Shown one piece after another: positions 2,225-39,902 of a DNA stretch of 64,000 bases (positions are counted from its first letter, which is position 1; each line of letters opens with the position of its first letter). The DNA is taken from NCBI RefSeq assembly GCF_013315695.1, contig NZ_CP054354.1; one strand, 5' to 3'. Source of the stretch: Escherichia coli. GTDB taxonomy: Bacteria > Pseudomonadota > Gammaproteobacteria > Enterobacterales > Enterobacteriaceae. Made by a program: the position numbers and the translations under genes. The notes under the pieces are model-generated. The model was not told the DNA's origin. It searched no databases and saw only the letters and a program-made list of their open reading frames with translations.

Positions 2225-2499
2225 TGGAACTGAAGTGGACCAGTAAGGCGCTTTCTGATTTGGCGCGGTTATATGATTTTCTGGTGCTGGCCAGTAAACC
2301 TGCGGCCGCCAGAACGGTGCAATCCCTGACACAGGCACCGGTCATTCTGTTAACTCATCCACGTATGGGAGAACAGTTGTTTCAGTTTGAACCCAGGGAG
2401 GTCAGACGGATTTTTGCTGGCGAGTACGAAATCCGTTACGAACTTAATGGCCAGACTATTTATGTATTGCGCCTGTGGCACACACGAGAAAACAGGTAG
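2224..2499 (+). CDS. Type II toxin, RelE/ParE family
   Basis: 91 aa, MELKWT...YEIRYELNGQTIYVLRLWHTRE, typical RelE/ParE length and C-terminal motif; translationally coupled to the upstream antitoxin. Confidence 0.8.
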   Translation: MELKWTSKALSDLARLYDFLVLASKPAAARTVQSLTQAPVILLTHPRMGEQLFQFEPREVRRIFAGEYEIRYELNGQTIYVLRLWHTRENR

Positions 2500-2604
2500 A
2501 TTGTGTGTGGGGACAACTTAACATAGCCTGCAGATATTAATTCTGGAATATTATTATCAGGCCAGATATTTTTCATTCCATTAAATAATCTTGTAGGAGA
2601 TAAA

Positions 2605-2886
2605 ATGAATTACGATGAAATAACAAAAATTACCGCTGAACGTATTAGCGACTACATGACCGAAGCAGTTAATACAGACTCTATAGCCGTTGCGGAAATG
2701 TTTCATAACGCTGCCTGGGGAGTGCGAACATTGTGGTTTGAACTCGTCACAAAAATAGATATAGATATACATAAAAAGAACAGGTATGCGAGTTATGATC
2801 TTAGAAGGAAAATCGAAATGCAGCATGAAGAGTTTCAGAAAATGACAGAGCGCGAGCAAGTGCCTTTATTGAAATCGCCAGAATAA
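2605..2886 (+). CDS. Hypothetical protein (93 aa), low-GC
   Basis: ATG preceded by RBS taggagataaa; AT-rich codon usage unlike the flanking backbone. Confidence 0.5.
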
Positions 2887-3076
2887 TAGAAACAGTACAA
2901 GTACATTGCTGTATTGTGTTTTCCTTGAATATTGAATCGCGGTGCCCATGTACTACGATTCCTTTCGTGTTGTTTATCATTGCACACTTTCCCTGACTGA
3001 GCGTAAACACTGACTACTTTCCCCTCAAACTCCTGGACGGCGAATGCAAAATTGGTCTGTTCCAGCATAGAATATG

Positions 3077-3346
3077 TTACTTTTTCATGACCGAACCCGA
3101 AATTTTGCGCGTCAATAAGAGACGTTGTGTAAACTCAGTCCTTTTATCTGGCAGGTTAACCCCTATCAATCTTAGGATGAAACCACGCCATCCTCTGTTT
3201 GCCTGGTTATTAATTTCATAAAGACGATTGTTTTCCTCTCGTAGTTTTGTCCACTCTAAACAAAGTGTTATATCATCCAGTTCTGTGATGTGTTTCACTT
3301 TTCCATTGACAGTTACAGTGTTTATTCCATTTCCTGTGATCATCAT
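3077..3346 (-). CDS. Hypothetical protein (89 aa), last gene of a minus-strand three-gene unit
   Basis: Start overlaps the stop of the upstream ORF (3343-3346); low GC. Confidence 0.4.
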   Translation of the reverse strand: MMITGNGINTVTVNGKVKHITELDDITLCLEWTKLREENNRLYEINNQANRGWRGFILRLIGVNLPDKRTEFTQRLLLTRKISGSVMKK

Positions 3347-3819
3347 CTTATGCCTTTTTTATCTTCATTTGGGACCGTGCTTTTCTTCGGAGTATCACTA
3401 TTCGTTAACTGCTGTTTATCAATAAAATTCCTGATGTTATCAAGTGCTTCCTTTGTTTTTAGAATGCGCTTGATATCCATTTCATCCCGCCCGGTCATTC
3501 TTTTTCCGGACAAAAGACGTTCAAGAAGCTCCTGTTTCGCATCAGGAGAATCTTTGGCGAGATCCATCAGGTTAAGCAAATCTTCACGATCGAGAGGAAA
3601 GAAGTATTTTACAAAATACTCGAAAAGCGAAAGAAAGTAGTATGCTGTCCATGCAATACCGAAACCGATTCCTATACAGAAATGCAGGTATATAATCAGG
3701 AGAATAGGTAAAATCCATAATACTATAGCTAAAAAAATATATACGGGGTACTGGCATCTGTATGCCCGTTCATGTTTATCCAGGATGAATAAAATCTTCT
3801 CCGCTTCTGAATCACACAT
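3343..3819 (-). CDS. Hypothetical membrane protein (~158 aa from ATG at 3819; ORF track extends to GTG at 3858)
   Basis: Two long hydrophobic segments (YPVYIFLAIVLWILPILLIIYLHFCIGIGFGIAWTAYYFL); GGGAAGAG SD-like sequence before the ATG at 3819. Confidence 0.45.
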   Translation of the reverse strand: MCDSEAEKILFILDKHERAYRCQYPVYIFLAIVLWILPILLIIYLHFCIGIGFGIAWTAYYFLSLFEYFVKYFFPLDREDLLNLMDLAKDSPDAKQELLERLLSGKRMTGRDEMDIKRILKTKEALDNIRNFIDKQQLTNSDTPKKSTVPNEDKKGIR

Positions 3820-3874
3820 AACATTCTCTTCCCATTTTTTCTGATACGTAATGTCCACCTGTTATCAGGAGTGT

Positions 3875-4477
3875 TTATTGCCCAGAAATATTCTCCTGCT
3901 GTGCCTGCATCCTGAGCCACTTTTGTTCTAATGTCGCCAGTCTGCGACCGGCACTCTGTGCTTCAGAGTCTGAGACCTGCCCTTTGGGGTGACCATCCAG
4001 GCCATAACGTGGGACGCCGGCGACAGCTGTCCGCTGCAGATATACGCGGCGGGATGTGATGCAGGACACTGCACAGAGCCATTCGTCCATGGTCAGTTCT
4101 GTCTCCGGGTGTTCTGCCAGAAATGCCGAAATATCATTGTTTATGCCAATTTTCAGGGGAATAAATCCACCACCTTCAGCACGAAGATGAGGAAACAGGG
4201 CCTTTATTTTTTCCACGCACTCGTGAGTATACTCACGGGTCCAGTGGGAGGGACGTGGAAAACGGTGTCTTTTCTTTTTCTTCTTCCTGGCTGGCGCTTC
4301 GGGGATATGTGTTTCGACGGCAGATGAATTTATTCCGGCGGGGGCTGATTCTGCCGTCTGTTCAGTAAATACAGGTGCGATAATATCTGTTTTTTCGGAT
4401 AAGGACGGTGGCGAAAAAGTACGACGTTTTTTCACCACAATGACGGGAGTTTTCCTTTCTTCCTGATTTTTTCCCAT
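3875..4477 (-). CDS. FinO/ProQ-domain RNA-binding protein
   Basis: 200 aa; Lys/Arg-rich N-terminal region (ARKKKKKRHRFPR) and a C-terminal segment (IPLKIGINNDI...ITSRRVYLQRTAVAGVPRYGLDGHPKGQV) that aligns by eye with the FinO C-terminal domain; GAGG RBS. Confidence 0.65.
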   Translation of the reverse strand: MGKNQEERKTPVIVVKKRRTFSPPSLSEKTDIIAPVFTEQTAESAPAGINSSAVETHIPEAPARKKKKKRHRFPRPSHWTREYTHECVEKIKALFPHLRAEGGGFIPLKIGINNDISAFLAEHPETELTMDEWLCAVSCITSRRVYLQRTAVAGVPRYGLDGHPKGQVSDSEAQSAGRRLATLEQKWLRMQAQQENISGQ

Positions 4478-4830
4478 AAATACCTCGGCTGGCTGGTTTT
4501 ACTCTTTAATAATATCACAATTCATAAATTAGTAAATTTCCCATCAGGTGATTTTTCATGGCTAATAAGTCCGTTCTCTGAGTATTTATACTCGAGGTAG
4601 TAACAGTTATGGCGTGACAGTCGAATTGATATTCTACTGAACCCTGACAGAAACATGGTTGATATATTCTCTCACTTTAATGTTGTCATGATATAAATAA
4701 AAACAATTCATTTGAAAGGATATCAGAAGAAGATATCGGGGCGCACAGTTCATCTCTGCCTTTGTTTCATGGGGTGTTCTTTGTATATTTTACTTACTGT
4801 TTAAGCATGTACATAAGGAGTGCTTTCATT

Positions 4831-6177
4831 ATGCCAATGATACTTGTAAAGAAGAATCCCCGGGGCAAAGTGATTCGGGAGCTTAGCAGTGAGGAAGAGA
4901 CTGCAGTAAAGACGGTCTGTGGACTGAAAAAGCCAGCAACCATGGCACTACATAACCTGGCCAATGATATTCTCCGGGAAATGCGTGAGTATGATGCATG
5001 GTTACAGTGTGACTGTATTCCGGGAGATTCGCCGGCCATGAATTTTGCTGCTCTTAAAAACAATACGGGTACTCTTTATCTGTCCAGTTTTAATCATGAG
5101 CATGCACCTGAATGCCCCATGTATCGTCAGTTATCCGGAAATGAAGAGGAAACATCTTCCGGAGCAAGCCGGCATCCCGTTAGCACCCGTATAAATTACA
5201 GAAACTTTTTACCACCTGATGACAGTAATTCTGTTATCAAACTGCAGGCCCGCTCTGCTTACCATAATGGTGAGAGCTCCTCCGTTCGCAAGAAACGTCC
5301 GCGCCTTGCCCGTTTACTCCTGTCGCTTATTGACGATGCTGGGCTGAATAAACTGGATTCCCTGGCTAATCCCCGTATCCGGACTAATTATCGTGAGTGT
5401 CTTGATGCCATACGGCAGGTTACACTGCAGCAGGAGTATATTCGGGGAAGATCCTTATCTGAAATTATCCATTTCCGGCCTGGAATGTCTGAAAGGTCTC
5501 AGGAGCGGTTAATGGAAACGCTGGAGAATTCAGAACGACACTGGCCTGCCAGAAGAAAACATATGTTCTTTCAGATTTTTATGGCGCAGCACATCTGTCG
5601 TGATGCTGTGGAAATTCACTGGGCGAACGGTAATATTCAGGTCATCAGACCTGTGCGGGGGATCAGTATTAATGGTGAAGCGCAGGGCGGAATACGTCCC
5701 CCTTACTGGGTTATTCTTGCTTTTTGCCGGAGTGCCGATGGCAGAATCATCTGCAGTGAAGGGTATGCTCATGCTCTTTATCAACTGACATGTCCGGTGC
5801 CTGTGGACAGCAAACTGGAACGAAACACGCTCACTGCTCTTCTGAATGTGGCCAGCTGGCTTAAAAGAAAGCCAGGTACGCCGGAATTAAGTCTGGAAAG
5901 GCCCCTGTTTGATACAGAAGTTTATGTTAATGGTGAAAAGAAATATGTCCTGCCGGATTTCATTGTCACTGCAAGGGCTCCTGACGGAAAGACGGCCAGA
6001 GTGGTCATCGAAACGATGGGATATGAAGACAGTGATTACTGCGCGAGAAAATCCAGGCAGCATACCGGCATGAAGCAGATTGGTGTTCTGCATACCGATC
6101 CACCGAAATGGCTGGATAACGATCATCCCCCTTTTGAGAAACATATGTACGGTGTTTTTATGCATCTCAGGTACTGA
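4831..6177 (+). CDS. Hypothetical protein (~449 aa) with a Cys/His cluster and a degenerate PD-(D/E)xK-like C-terminal motif
   Basis: ORF track 4762-6177; ATG at 4831 follows AAGGAG (4814-4819). CDCIPGD...HEHAPECP cluster; C-terminal YVLPDFIV...VVIETMGY resembles a TnsA/PD-(D/E)xK core but lacks the Lys. Confidence 0.6.
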   Translation: MPMILVKKNPRGKVIRELSSEEETAVKTVCGLKKPATMALHNLANDILREMREYDAWLQCDCIPGDSPAMNFAALKNNTGTLYLSSFNHEHAPECPMYRQLSGNEEETSSGASRHPVSTRINYRNFLPPDDSNSVIKLQARSAYHNGESSSVRKKRPRLARLLLSLIDDAGLNKLDSLANPRIRTNYRECLDAIRQVTLQQEYIRGRSLSEIIHFRPGMSERSQERLMETLENSERHWPARRKHMFFQIFMAQHICRDAVEIHWANGNIQVIRPVRGISINGEAQGGIRPPYWVILAFCRSADGRIICSEGYAHALYQLTCPVPVDSKLERNTLTALLNVASWLKRKPGTPELSLERPLFDTEVYVNGEKKYVLPDFIVTARAPDGKTARVVIETMGYEDSDYCARKSRQHTGMKQIGVLHTDPPKWLDNDHPPFEKHMYGVFMHLRY

Positions 6178-6679: not shown

Positions 6680-6982
6680 TTATCTTTGTTTTACTTCTGC
6701 TATCAATCGTGATACCTCTGTTTTTGATAGTGTTTTAAGTGCTTCTACCGCCGCCCTGACAACATCAGAACGATTCACTCTGCCTTTACCTGAAACCATC
6801 TCAGCCGTTATAAGGGCATCAATGTCTTTTAGGTTTTCTTCAAAAAAAGAAATACTCACTGGTTTTGCTTTGCTTACAACCGATGATTTATCTGATGACT
6901 TTTTGGTATTATCAAGGCCAGCCGTGCCACCGTTAATAAATGCTGCCTCGTCACGAGGTGAAGTGTTTGCTCTATTTCTCAC
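6680..6982 (-). CDS. Partition centromere-binding protein, ParG-like (predicted ribbon-helix-helix C-terminus)
   Basis: 100 aa; GTG start overlapping the ParA stop (GTGA); C-terminal GRVNRSDVVRAAVEALKTL fits a strand-helix-helix pattern; sits immediately after a small ParA. Confidence 0.55.
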   Translation of the reverse strand: MRNRANTSPRDEAAFINGGTAGLDNTKKSSDKSSVVSKAKPVSISFFEENLKDIDALITAEMVSGKGRVNRSDVVRAAVEALKTLSKTEVSRLIAEVKQR

Positions 6983-7605
6983 AGAATAACCTCTTTCACT
7001 AACGCTTCGATTTCTTGCTGGGCTTTATCATTTTGCGTTTCAAAAATTGTCATTGATTCGGCCCAAGCATCTCGATGTGCTTTACGATCACATACCCGGG
7101 AGTTTGCCAGATGCATTTCAGGGTAATCCTTAAGTACTTCAGCTGCCTCATTGGCTTCATTAACAAACATATTTGTGGGCGTCATGTTTAAAACGAGATA
7201 TCCCCGAACATCCTCATTAAAATCTTTTGCTGCTGTAAAAACGGAGCATGTATGAGGCACAACATCCAGGTCCATCTGAGATGGGCGCAAAGGAGAAATG
7301 AATACATCTGCGGCCATCAATCCACTACGCATTTCTGCGCTATCACGGCCAGCACAGTCTGCAATAACAAAATCATAGGATTTTTCGTGTTCCTTTAACA
7401 TGGCTTTGATGTTACCTGTCGCGCCTGTAACCGGAATATGAGGGAGATCTTCAGGGCGATTGTTGTACCAGGTTAATACTGATTTCTGGTCATCTGCGTC
7501 GACAATAATCACTCTATTGCCTAGTGACATCAGATACGCAGCTATAGATACCGCCAGTGTACTTTTACCTACCCCACCCTTTTGACTACCTAATACTATT
7601 ATCAT
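6979..7605 (-). CDS. Partition ATPase, small ParA (type Ib, ParF-like)
   Basis: 208 aa with deviant Walker A KGGVGKST near the N-terminus; GAGG RBS; flanked by iteron arrays. Confidence 0.9.
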   Translation of the reverse strand: MIIVLGSQKGGVGKSTLAVSIAAYLMSLGNRVIIVDADDQKSVLTWYNNRPEDLPHIPVTGATGNIKAMLKEHEKSYDFVIADCAGRDSAEMRSGLMAADVFISPLRPSQMDLDVVPHTCSVFTAAKDFNEDVRGYLVLNMTPTNMFVNEANEAAEVLKDYPEMHLANSRVCDRKAHRDAWAESMTIFETQNDKAQQEIEALVKEVIL

Positions 7606-7816: not shown

Positions 7817-9088
7817 TCATAACTGGGCTACTGGCAAATCTGTCCATCTGGTGGTATACGCAGGAGAAAGCATTTCCCGTTTCATTTGCCATTCAGGGGC
7901 GGTTCCTCGCCCCGCAAACCACACTTTCCCTTTTCCCGACTGGTTCAGTTCATCGAGTGTTTTCATTAACTTTTCACTGTTTTTACGGGGCTGGATTTCA
8001 TCAAATAATCCCGGCTGCGCTATACCCGATGGTGTGAAATCAGCCAGCATGACACCTGCCTTCATATAGCGGTACCCTTCACGCCAGACATGGTTTAACG
8101 CTCTGCATGCTGCGGCAATAATGTCCCGGCTGTCCTGTGTGGGCAATGGAAGCTTTTCCACAGCGGCATTGCTGTAACAGGGTTCTTTTACTGCAAAGGG
8201 GGATGTCCGTACAAATGTCGTCACCTGCCGGCAATACTGACGCTCCCCACGTAGTTTCTCTGCGGCCCGCTCTGCATACTGAACAACAGCCTGGTGCATG
8301 GCATCTTTGTCTGTGATTCGTTCACCAAAACTGCGACTACAGACAATCTGCTGTTTTGCCGGCGGTGCTTCTTCCAGAGATATGCAGGACTCGCCGTTGA
8401 GTTCGCGTACCGTACGCTCAAGAATGACGCTGAAGTTTTTCCGGATGAATGCCGTGTTAGCCTGCGCCAGCTGCAGTGCTGTGTTAATACCCAGCGCATT
8501 CAGCTTTTCCGTCAGTCTGCGTCCTACTCCCCAGACCTCACCAACTGGCTGCAACCCCAGTAGCTTCAAGATCCGATTACGGTTTTCTGCCGTCAGCGCG
8601 ACCACACCGGAAAACTGTGGCCATTGCTTTGTTGCCCACTGGGCACTTTTAGCCAGCGTTTTTGTAGGCGCAATGCCCACCCCCATGGTGAGTCCTGTCC
8701 AGCTCTTTACCTGTTCCCTGAGCTGATGACCAAAAATCTCCGGAGAGATGCAATGATTTATCCCCCGCAAATCAATGAACATTTCATCAATTGAGTAGGG
8801 CTCAACTGCGGGAGAAAGCGACTCCAGAACAGCCATAACCCGTTGGCTCATGCTGTGGTACAGCGCATAATTGCTGGAAAATACATGTATTTTCTTCTCC
8901 AGGCGCATTTGTCTCACCTGAAACCAGGGCTGCCCCATTCTGATGCCAAGGGCTTTTGCCTCCGGGCTGCGCGCGATCACACAGCCATCGTTATTGCTGA
9001 GTACGATGACCGGTTCGTTGCGAAGGTCCGGGCGGAAAACTTTTTCACATGAGGCGTAGAAACTGTTGATATCAGCCAGTGCAAACAT
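7817..9088 (-). CDS. impB: Error-prone Y-family DNA polymerase subunit, UmuC homologue (ImpB)
   Basis: 423 aa, N-terminus MFALADINSFYASCE...VIVLSNNDGCVIARS typical of UmuC/MucB/ImpB; start overlaps impA stop. Confidence 0.95.
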   Translation of the reverse strand: MFALADINSFYASCEKVFRPDLRNEPVIVLSNNDGCVIARSPEAKALGIRMGQPWFQVRQMRLEKKIHVFSSNYALYHSMSQRVMAVLESLSPAVEPYSIDEMFIDLRGINHCISPEIFGHQLREQVKSWTGLTMGVGIAPTKTLAKSAQWATKQWPQFSGVVALTAENRNRILKLLGLQPVGEVWGVGRRLTEKLNALGINTALQLAQANTAFIRKNFSVILERTVRELNGESCISLEEAPPAKQQIVCSRSFGERITDKDAMHQAVVQYAERAAEKLRGERQYCRQVTTFVRTSPFAVKEPCYSNAAVEKLPLPTQDSRDIIAAACRALNHVWREGYRYMKAGVMLADFTPSGIAQPGLFDEIQPRKNSEKLMKTLDELNQSGKGKVWFAGRGTAPEWQMKREMLSPAYTTRWTDLPVAQL

Positions 9089-35819: not shown

Positions 35820-36010
35820 AATAATCTACGGACAGATTACTTTCTGTACTTCCAGAGCCTGTTTCTGTGAGTCAAACATGAGCTGGTTTTTACCGACTAC
35901 ACCCAAGTAAATATATTCGATATCTCCCATTTGCCGTATTTTCGTAAAATTCAACAGGAAATATTCAACGGGAGTGAGAGAACTGCTGTCCGGGGAGGAG
36001 GTACAGACGC

Positions 36011-36044
36011 AAAAAAACCGACTGGTGAGGCCGGTTTTTTTGCG
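36011..36044. terminator. Hairpin with flanking A/T runs at the start of type I module 2
   Basis: aaaaaaaccgactggtgaggccggttttttt, paralogue of 35282-35312. Confidence 0.55.
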
Positions 36045-36105
36045 ATTCCGGATCGAAGTTGGTAGCCCTGACCGGAAGATAACTGCCTATAACTGACTAT
36101 GAAAT
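36045..36105 (-). ncRNA. Predicted antisense sRNA for module 2
   Basis: 36071-36101 repeats 36254-36292 (toxin 2 leader) at ~26/30; repeat sequence differs from module 1. Confidence 0.3.
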
Positions 36106-39420: not shown

Positions 39421-39749
39421 GATGTGTCCTTGTTTTTTATTATTTTGCATTTCAGAAAATAACACGATGCCTGCAGCCCGGAAAACAGATGTGTGCACAC
39501 GTAGTCACTTTCCGGCTTTATTTCTGTCCCTGACACAAAATACGTGGTGGCATGAAAAGGATTGTGGCGGACTGGAAAACGATTAGAATAGCGGCGGGCG
39601 CTTGAGGCTGTATGCCGAAAGCGTTTTGTGGACGGCATGTAGCAGAAAGCCCCAGGCGATTTTTTTATCAATCAACCCAGGGCCCACTGTAATGCCTCAA
39701 CAACATTATAGTAGCCCGATGACGGCCGAAAGGCAATGGAGGGGCTGCG

Positions 39750-39902
39750 ATGCCACAACGAACGTTTTTAATGATGTTAATCGTCGTCTGTGTGACGATA
39801 CTGTGTTTTGTCTGGATGGTGAGGGATTCGCTTTGCGGATTTCGTATCGAGCAGGGAAATACGGTGCTTGTGGCAACGTTAGCCTACGAAGTTAAACGTT
39901 AA
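39750..39902 (+). CDS. Hok/Gef-family type I toxin (PndA-like, 50 aa) with overlapping mok-like frame
   Basis: MPQRTFLMMLIVVCVTILCFVWMVRDSLCGFRIEQGNTVLVATLAYEVKR fits the Hok pattern (...R.SLC....G...V.A.LAYE.K); overlapping ORF 39692-39895 ends 7 nt before the hok stop, as mok does; below the ORF-track cutoff. Confidence 0.7.
   Translation: MPQRTFLMMLIVVCVTILCFVWMVRDSLCGFRIEQGNTVLVATLAYEVKR

Follow-up and report, generated by a model that had tools for sequence, protein, structure and literature searches.

A FopA-type RNA chaperone gene and its probable accessory neighbours yafA and yaeA on an I-complex plasmid of Escherichia coli

Background

Three open reading frames lie on the same strand at positions 3077-4477 of a 64,000-nt stretch of an E. 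coli plasmid, here called the window: a gene for a FinO-domain protein, a gene for a membrane protein and a gene for a protein of 89 amino acids. The locus raises the question whether the three form one functional unit, in which the membrane protein is a partner of the RNA-binding protein as the initial annotation proposed, and on which RNA the FinO-domain protein would act. The window opens with a repA/repZ-type initiator gene and is part of an I-complex conjugative plasmid.

Results

Layout and base composition of the locus

The outer coordinates and the minus-strand orientation of the three genes were confirmed by the list of open reading frames. The features referred to below are as follows.

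3073-3076: edge of the conserved block, 1-4 nt outside the yaeA stop codon, where near-identity to pCol1B9 sets in
3077-3346, minus strand: yaeA-like ORF, 89 aa (88 aa in RefSeq), a basic, soluble protein
3343-3819, minus strand: yafA, 158 aa from the ATG at 3819 (RefSeq), predicted two-helix TM hairpin and helical C-domain
3343-3858, minus strand: longer version of yafA in the ORF list, 171 aa, GTG start at 3858
3820-3874, minus strand: fopA-yafA spacer, 55 nt, without terminator-like or promoter-like site
3875-4477, minus strand: fopA (yafB), 200-aa FinO/ProQ-domain RNA chaperone (ORF list and Pfam)
4509-4536, minus strand: candidate fopA promoter, sigma-70-like, TTTACT-16-TATTAT with extended TG, a consensus match only
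4688-4716, minus strand: second promoter-like site, in the AT-rich divergent intergenic region of fopA and yagA, a consensus match only

The stop codon of yafA overlaps the start of the 89-aa ORF in an ATGA at 3343-3346. The GTG extension of yafA is not kept in the other yafA allele, in which the GTG is changed to CTG and 1 nt is deleted.

All three genes had been described as AT-rich. This holds for yafA (38.0% GC) and the 89-aa ORF (38.1%), which alone are strongly AT-rich, but not for fopA, with 50.1% GC against a window mean of 53.6%. As a whole the three genes have 43.3% GC, within the lowest 8% of 1401-bp windows, and the low-GC tract, from about 2500 to about 4760, extends past them on both sides.

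Several E. coli plasmids match positions 2400-4800 of the window with 100% identity, and the match to NZ_OP378611 is in register with the window numbering. Relative to pCol1B9 (reference record NC_017718) the locus is near-identical from the yaeA stop codon through fopA into yagA, with the exception of a short central stretch of yafA, and the sequence downstream of the unit (2500-3072) is unrelated to pCol1B9. As a separate observation, fopA lies in a hotspot of recombination and insertion, and blaCMY-2 integrates adjoining yafB-yagA (PMC11024496).

Assignment of the 200-aa protein to FopA

Residues 84-186 of the head protein match the Pfam family PF04352 ProQ/FinO (E=1.4e-12, profile positions 4-102 of 109) with 48 bits against a gathering cutoff of 27. 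The sequence also matches the solved FinO domains of ProQ (ProQ-NTD, 5nb9, E=1.5e-5) and RocC (7rgs, E=0.0086), and at the sequence level the head gene can be taken as coding for a FinO-domain protein, as was first proposed. It scored below threshold with the NCBIfam models for FinO proper (NF010317, 25.7 bits, cutoff 136) and for the ProQ equivalog (NF003434, 24.5 bits, cutoff 127).

Aligned with FopA of pCol1B9 (NC_017718, 5713-6315) the protein is identical at 199 of 200 residues, without gaps and over the full length including the FopA-specific N-terminal region, the sole substitution being P23 here for L23 in pCol1B9. The N-terminal region (about residues 1-83) is disordered and rich in Lys and Arg. 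The protein keeps Tyr146 and Arg157, the conserved RNA-binding residues in the FopA numbering (PMC7491321), and the dN/dS of the gene against pSTY1-1898 is 0.29. It is placed between yafA and yagA near a repZ-type replicon as in pCol1B9, in agreement with the published location of fopA between these two genes (PMC7491321). On every sequence-level criterion tested, the 200-aa protein belongs to the FinO/ProQ superfamily and to the FopA orthologue group.

FopA is the name given to YafB by Gerovac et al. (2020, RNA 26:1448; PMC7491321). The protein accumulates in stationary phase (PMC7491321), and YafB was reported at high abundance in proteome data from an E. coli transconjugant with the plasmid pCTXM123_C0996 (PMC10531281).

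The Inc and repZ target

In the published RIP-seq of pCol1B9 FopA the reads were dominated by Inc, the cis-antisense RNA of about 70 nt of the repZ replicon, and the repZ mRNA was likewise enriched; STnc1590, mgtM and STnc700 were the further leading ligands listed, and none of these is a type I antitoxin (PMC7491321). On its own, the purified protein binds Inc and repZ and makes the formation of the Inc-repZ duplex about sevenfold faster (PMC7491321). The expectation that a FinO-domain protein acts on antisense RNA agrees well with Inc as the main ligand. According to a review, FopA represses the synthesis of RepZ and hence the plasmid copy number (PMC9977716).

In NZ_OP378611 a repZ pseudoknot leader was recognised by Rfam RF01087 (PK-repZ) with 188.9 bits in the 160 nt preceding window position 1. 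The same 160 nt hold a CopA-like match on the antisense strand that ends about 12 nt before window position 1, and both features lie outside the 64-kb window. The Inc-like antisense strand gives a long hairpin and loop as in pCol1B9, with the tail UUUUCCUU and a z of -4.8. Its upper stem differs from that of pCol1B9 Inc at several positions, as is expected between incompatibility types.

The literature examined gave no copy-number phenotype of ΔfopA for plasmids of the I-complex. In TnSeq on the IncI1 plasmid pESBL, YafA (0.96), the FopA homologue Hp3 (0.95) and YagA (1.00) were non-essential (PMC4288162, Table 2), which refers to dispensability for maintenance and transfer under laboratory conditions only.

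Spacer, promoters and co-transcription

A consensus scan detected neither terminator-like nor promoter-like sites between fopA, yafA and yaeA. The fopA-yafA spacer is identical in the window and in pCol1B9, and in two plasmids with the second yafA allele it has one substitution and an A-run shifted by 1 nt; the divergence between the alleles becomes strong at the ribosome-binding site and start codon of yafA. The candidate promoter at 4509-4536 lies 32-59 nt upstream of the fopA ATG in a region identical to pCol1B9. Given the lack of such sites between the genes and the overlap of the last two, co-transcription of yafA and yaeA with fopA from this candidate promoter is plausible.

The proteins encoded by yafA and yaeA

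The hydropathy plot of YafA has one continuous hydrophobic stretch at residues 22-59 (19-residue Kyte-Doolittle windows above 1.6), and the AF2 model is all-helical (pLDDT 68) with helices at residues 3-49 and 52-73. We read the hydrophobic parts as a TM hairpin of two helices, approximately 24-49 and 52-74, and the conserved helical C-domain past the hairpin as cytoplasmic, so the model is consistent with the two-helix membrane protein first described. The UniRef name is 'Protein YafA', and no match was detected in Pfam, NCBIfam, PADLOC (E<=1) or PHROGs. A profile search with the YafA alignment against 1.84 billion cluster representatives returned 109 matches only, many of them short fragments, and Pfam gave nothing meaningful for ten of the longer ones. 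A polysaccharide deacetylase of 302 aa among the matches looks like a fused or mis-called ORF.

YafA of the window is 90% identical to YafA of pCol1B9, the differences being a 6-aa indel and 11 substitutions, which cluster in the TM region. At the nucleotide level there are 12 non-synonymous changes and 1 synonymous change, a ratio that is not statistically significant on 13 changes. The dN/dS of yafA is 0.55-0.65.

The 89-aa YaeA-like protein (pI 10.0, AF2 pLDDT 71) is 100% identical to WP_000627831 of pCol1B9, and the dN/dS of its gene is 0.09. In the alignment of homologues the residues G-W-R-G-F at 52-56, inside a conserved motif, are invariant. No match was found in Pfam, NCBIfam or PADLOC (E<=1), PHROG matches were seen only at E 0.13 or worse, and a profile search of the PDB gave no fold match. 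Foldseek comparison of the YafA and YaeA models with the PDB yielded nothing below E=2.7. In pairwise comparison YaeA resembled part of an AraC-family regulator encoded on pEGY2, namely its first HTH (34% over 70 aa, E=2e-6). This likeness was rejected: profile comparison gave it a probability of only 9.5%, and no AraC or other HTH domain came from the Pfam scan or the PDB profile search. Both yafA and the yaeA-like ORF appear to be real genes, since homologues with 35-67% amino-acid identity and invariant motifs are present on other plasmid backbones and the dN/dS values lie below 1.

Conservation of the three genes on other plasmids

To judge the three genes as a unit, it should be noted that in 997 of the 1501 plasmid records matching the block a contiguous stretch covers 80% or more of 3077-4477. 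More diverged FopA homologues (69, 65, 49, 34 and 33% identity) sit on IncI-gamma, IncFIA, IncK2/Z and IncI2 plasmids; the homologue from IncI2 is PcnR. All five lack yafA and yaeA and have different genes downstream, and in four of the five loci the homologue is located a few kb from an antisense-controlled repA.

The neighbours of fopA are in turn found elsewhere. Homologues of YafA without fopA occur on an IncX1 plasmid and in F-like tra operons between traR and traC, the latter making up most of the plasmid matches of the family. On IncF(K) and IncHI2 plasmids, YaeA homologues stand by themselves in the vicinity of hha or H-NS genes. At these sites yaeA homologues have no yafA as neighbour, and yafA homologues no yaeA.

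Within the IncI1 plasmid pN367, a fopA that is 99% identical (dS = 0) lies beside a yafA of 65% identity (dS = 0.42). In this plasmid yafA is intact while yaeA has lost 122 bp internally, and pESBL-type plasmids share both the yafA allele and the yaeA remnant with it. The two yafA alleles reconverge near the 3' end of the gene. By these comparisons, yafA and yaeA are frequent but not obligate neighbours of fopA, and are exchanged or lost independently.

Accordingly, the claim that the three genes work as a unit in which the membrane protein is a partner is not upheld, as the neighbours vary and homologues of yafA and yaeA occur without fopA. The initial annotation had also held that absence of the genes from close relatives without a phenotype would count against it. 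This is so in part for yaeA, which is deleted in pN367, and the homologues of yafA and fopA are among the genes that were non-essential in the pESBL TnSeq (PMC4288162).

Discussion

We consider it very probable that fopA is a known copy-number chaperone gene, and that yafA and yaeA are separately acquired accessory genes which FopA does not need for its role. FopA binds Inc, which forms a long stem-loop ending in a short U-rich 3' tail, and speeds its pairing with the repZ/repA mRNA leader, as shown for the 99.5%-identical protein of pCol1B9. This pairing blocks the leader pseudoknot required for RepZ translation, and tighter negative control of copy number would follow. By analogy, FopA may act likewise on the slightly different Inc of the present plasmid, and from the review cited above together with the IncI2 paralogue PcnR we infer an effect of FopA on copy number in vivo. 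The accessory genes yafA and yaeA would probably be read through from fopA, and their role may be associated with the envelope and unrelated to RNA chaperoning by FopA. The difference in GC content (fopA 50%, yafA and yaeA 38%) argues for separate origins of the two. A functional link of some kind may nonetheless exist among the three genes, because the block is contiguous in 997 of 1501 records and the spacer is almost identical across the yafA alleles.

Rather unlikely in our view is an independent two-gene module of yafA and yaeA beside fopA, for instance a membrane toxin with a small regulator, a system resembling abortive infection or exclusion, or a conjugation accessory. The ATGA overlap suggests translational coupling of the pair, both genes have 38% GC unlike fopA, YafA-like genes are found between traR and traC inside F-like tra operons, and the TM region of YafA varies relative to pCol1B9 (12 non-synonymous to 1 synonymous change, and the 6-aa indel). 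On the other hand, neither protein matches PADLOC, Pfam, NCBIfam or PHROG, and the 12:1 ratio lacks statistical significance on 13 changes. The two genes are not conserved as a pair, since yaeA has been lost from pN367 next to an intact yafA and homologues of each gene lack the other elsewhere. For this reason a toxin-antitoxin reading of yafA and yaeA was rejected as the main explanation.

It is improbable that yafA and yaeA, if co-transcribed with fopA, make up a so far unrecognised membrane-associated accessory to antisense control of copy number, or a new small membrane-effector module. If this were true, the recurrence of YafA-like genes in tra operons of the F-like type would suggest an envelope function conserved among plasmids.

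Still less do we expect that the three genes are a single functional module in which YafA and YaeA modulate or localise FopA, by membrane tethering or sensing of growth state. Such a module would fit the contiguous same-strand arrangement with no predicted terminator between the genes, the intact block in about two thirds of the matching records and the conserved spacer next to different yafA alleles, and the stationary-phase accumulation of FopA (PMC7491321) makes regulation plausible. However, purified FopA is active on Inc and on pairing by itself (PMC7491321), all five diverged homologues do without yafA and yaeA, yafA alleles have been swapped beside an unchanged fopA and yaeA has been lost, and the differing GC contents argue for separate origins.

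Type I antitoxin RNAs had been suggested as targets, and some FinO-domain proteins such as ProQ do bind RNAs of this type. SibA, for example, co-purifies with ProQ (PMC8136791). The window contains a sok RNA at 39596-39752, and the FopA homologue of IncI2 adjoins a hok gene. But the RIP-seq of a 99.5%-identical FopA was dominated by Inc and antitoxins are absent from the named top ligands (PMC7491321), and we regard it as very unlikely that FopA mainly serves antisense RNAs of type I toxin-antitoxin systems such as Sok.

That yafA, the 89-aa ORF or both arose by chance in AT-rich DNA and are not genes is hardly credible: the lack of family assignment, the only moderate AF2 confidence and the many truncated database copies would agree with this, but homologues at 35-67% identity with invariant motifs in unrelated backbones, dN/dS values below 1 for both genes and 109 cluster representatives in the profile search, many of them short fragments, speak against it.

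The finding on FopA is already known, as the gene has a name and mapped ligands, and many plasmid records annotate all three ORFs; the window contributes one more copy of fopA, on an IncK/Z-type backbone. FopA-type proteins set the copy number of I-complex plasmids, which rank among the main carriers of ESBL and AmpC genes, and thereby their fitness cost and the dosage of resistance genes. Hundreds of sequenced plasmids carry yafA and the yaeA-like gene.

Comparison with known systems

The most similar system is FopA of pCol1B9 from S. Typhimurium SL1344, which shares 199 of 200 residues, the yafA-yagA position near repZ and an identical upstream region with the gene in the window. Its target is of the same type as in the present plasmid, an Inc/repZ pseudoknot leader, whereas the replicon types differ: the present plasmid is typed as IncK2/Z or IncI1/B/O, and the pCol1B9 type is IncI-gamma/K1.

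FinO of F-like plasmids, which acts on FinP/traJ, has the FinO domain in common with FopA, protects a cis-antisense stem-loop RNA and speeds its pairing with mRNA. FinO controls conjugation through traJ, FopA-type proteins control replication, and the N-terminal regions are unrelated. In ProQ, the chromosomal global RNA chaperone, the FinO domain aligns with that of FopA (5nb9, E=1.5e-5), but FopA is without the ProQ linker and the Tudor-like C-terminal domain, and its published target set is distinct from that of ProQ.

PcnR (YaeC) of IncI2 plasmids is likewise a plasmid FinO-domain protein encoded close to repA, approximately 33-36% identical to FopA of the window, and its locus has no yafA or yaeA as neighbours. 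PcnR binds a stem-loop in the repR leader mRNA directly (PMC8053102), in contrast to FopA, which chaperones the antisense RNA. It represses synthesis of the replication initiator and copy number, and the copy number of the ΔpcnR IncI2 plasmid is increased about 10-fold (Yang et al. 2021, NAR 49:3981; PMC8053102). Though the RNA contact of PcnR differs, the effect of ΔpcnR illustrates what proteins of the FopA class can do.

Allelic divergence of yafA

The yafA gene, which encodes the membrane protein of the fopA unit, occurs as two sharply different alleles, with about 60-65% amino-acid identity and a dS of about 0.4 between the window and the plasmids pN367 and pSTY1-1898. The genes compared were:

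Window, 3343-3819, minus strand: yafA
L015 (locus from pN367), 1604-2113: yafA
L014 (locus from pSTY1-1898), 1772-2272: yafA

The flanking fopA and yaeA sequences are near-identical around these divergent alleles, and the mosaic breakpoints of yafA lie at the gene start and near the 3' end. In the transmembrane region, comparison of the window with pCol1B9 gave 12 non-synonymous changes to 1 synonymous along with an 18-bp indel; this excess is unusual, though not statistically significant.

The yaeA-like gene survives only as a remnant in IncI1 plasmids of the pN367 and pESBL types; it carries an internal deletion of 122 bp, and no part except residues 41-76 can be recognised:

L015 (pN367), about 1500-1610: yaeA-like remnant
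L008, 3505-3612: yaeA-like remnant

Genes surrounding the unit

Directly after the yaeA stop codon an AT-rich segment stands in place of the 3'-5' exonuclease and hypothetical genes of pCol1B9. The 93-aa ORF it contains has 38.7% GC, and a family search with this ORF gave no match. Immediately upstream of the AT-rich tract we also detect an overlapping gene pair similar to yacA/yacB.

1940-2499: ribbon-helix-helix antitoxin and RelE/ParE toxin genes
2500-3072: AT-rich segment
2605-2886, plus strand: 93-aa ORF

On the far side of fopA lie the following genes:

4762-6177 (RefSeq start about 4831), divergent from fopA: yagA
6680-7605: ParA-family ATPase and overlapping 100-aa partner
7817-9088: Y-family (ImpB/UmuC-like) DNA polymerase, after the ParA-family pair

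The yagA product is conserved (about 448-471 aa), and its C-terminus bears only a faint likeness to families of nuclease type, with DUF790 at E=0.27 and the restriction endonuclease family BPTD_3080 at E=0.071. A low-GC stretch (35-39%) separates the ParA-family pair from the polymerase gene. In epidemic IncI1 plasmids yafB (fopA) and yagA are flanked by blaCMY-2 insertions (PMC11024496).

Antisense RNA matches

Rfam searches of the window revealed two antisense RNA matches:

36009-36096, minus strand: AgrB RNA, 47.7 bits (Rfam gathering threshold 40)
39596-39752, plus strand: sok antitoxin RNA, gathering-level match, 124.7 bits

AgrB is an antisense RNA family associated with dinQ, a type I toxin locus of the chromosome. 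The AgrB-like match on this plasmid may point to an unannotated type I toxin-antitoxin locus.

Related loci in other plasmids

A FopA homologue with 49% identity is encoded in pEGY2, another IncK2/Z plasmid, where genes for a regulator of the PerC family and an HTH protein of AraC type take the place of yafA and yaeA behind it. A weak likeness of YaeA to this AraC-type protein was not upheld by profile comparison and was rejected. YafA-like membrane proteins of 158 aa (about 35% identity) are encoded within the tra operons of F-like plasmids, with traR on one side and traC on the other, the gene start overlapping the end of traR.

L005 (pEGY2), 3501-5206: FopA homologue locus
L010 (pCC1409-1), 3001-3477: YafA-like gene in tra operon, also in many F-like plasmids

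This distant tra-operon form of YafA is present in >1700 plasmid records.
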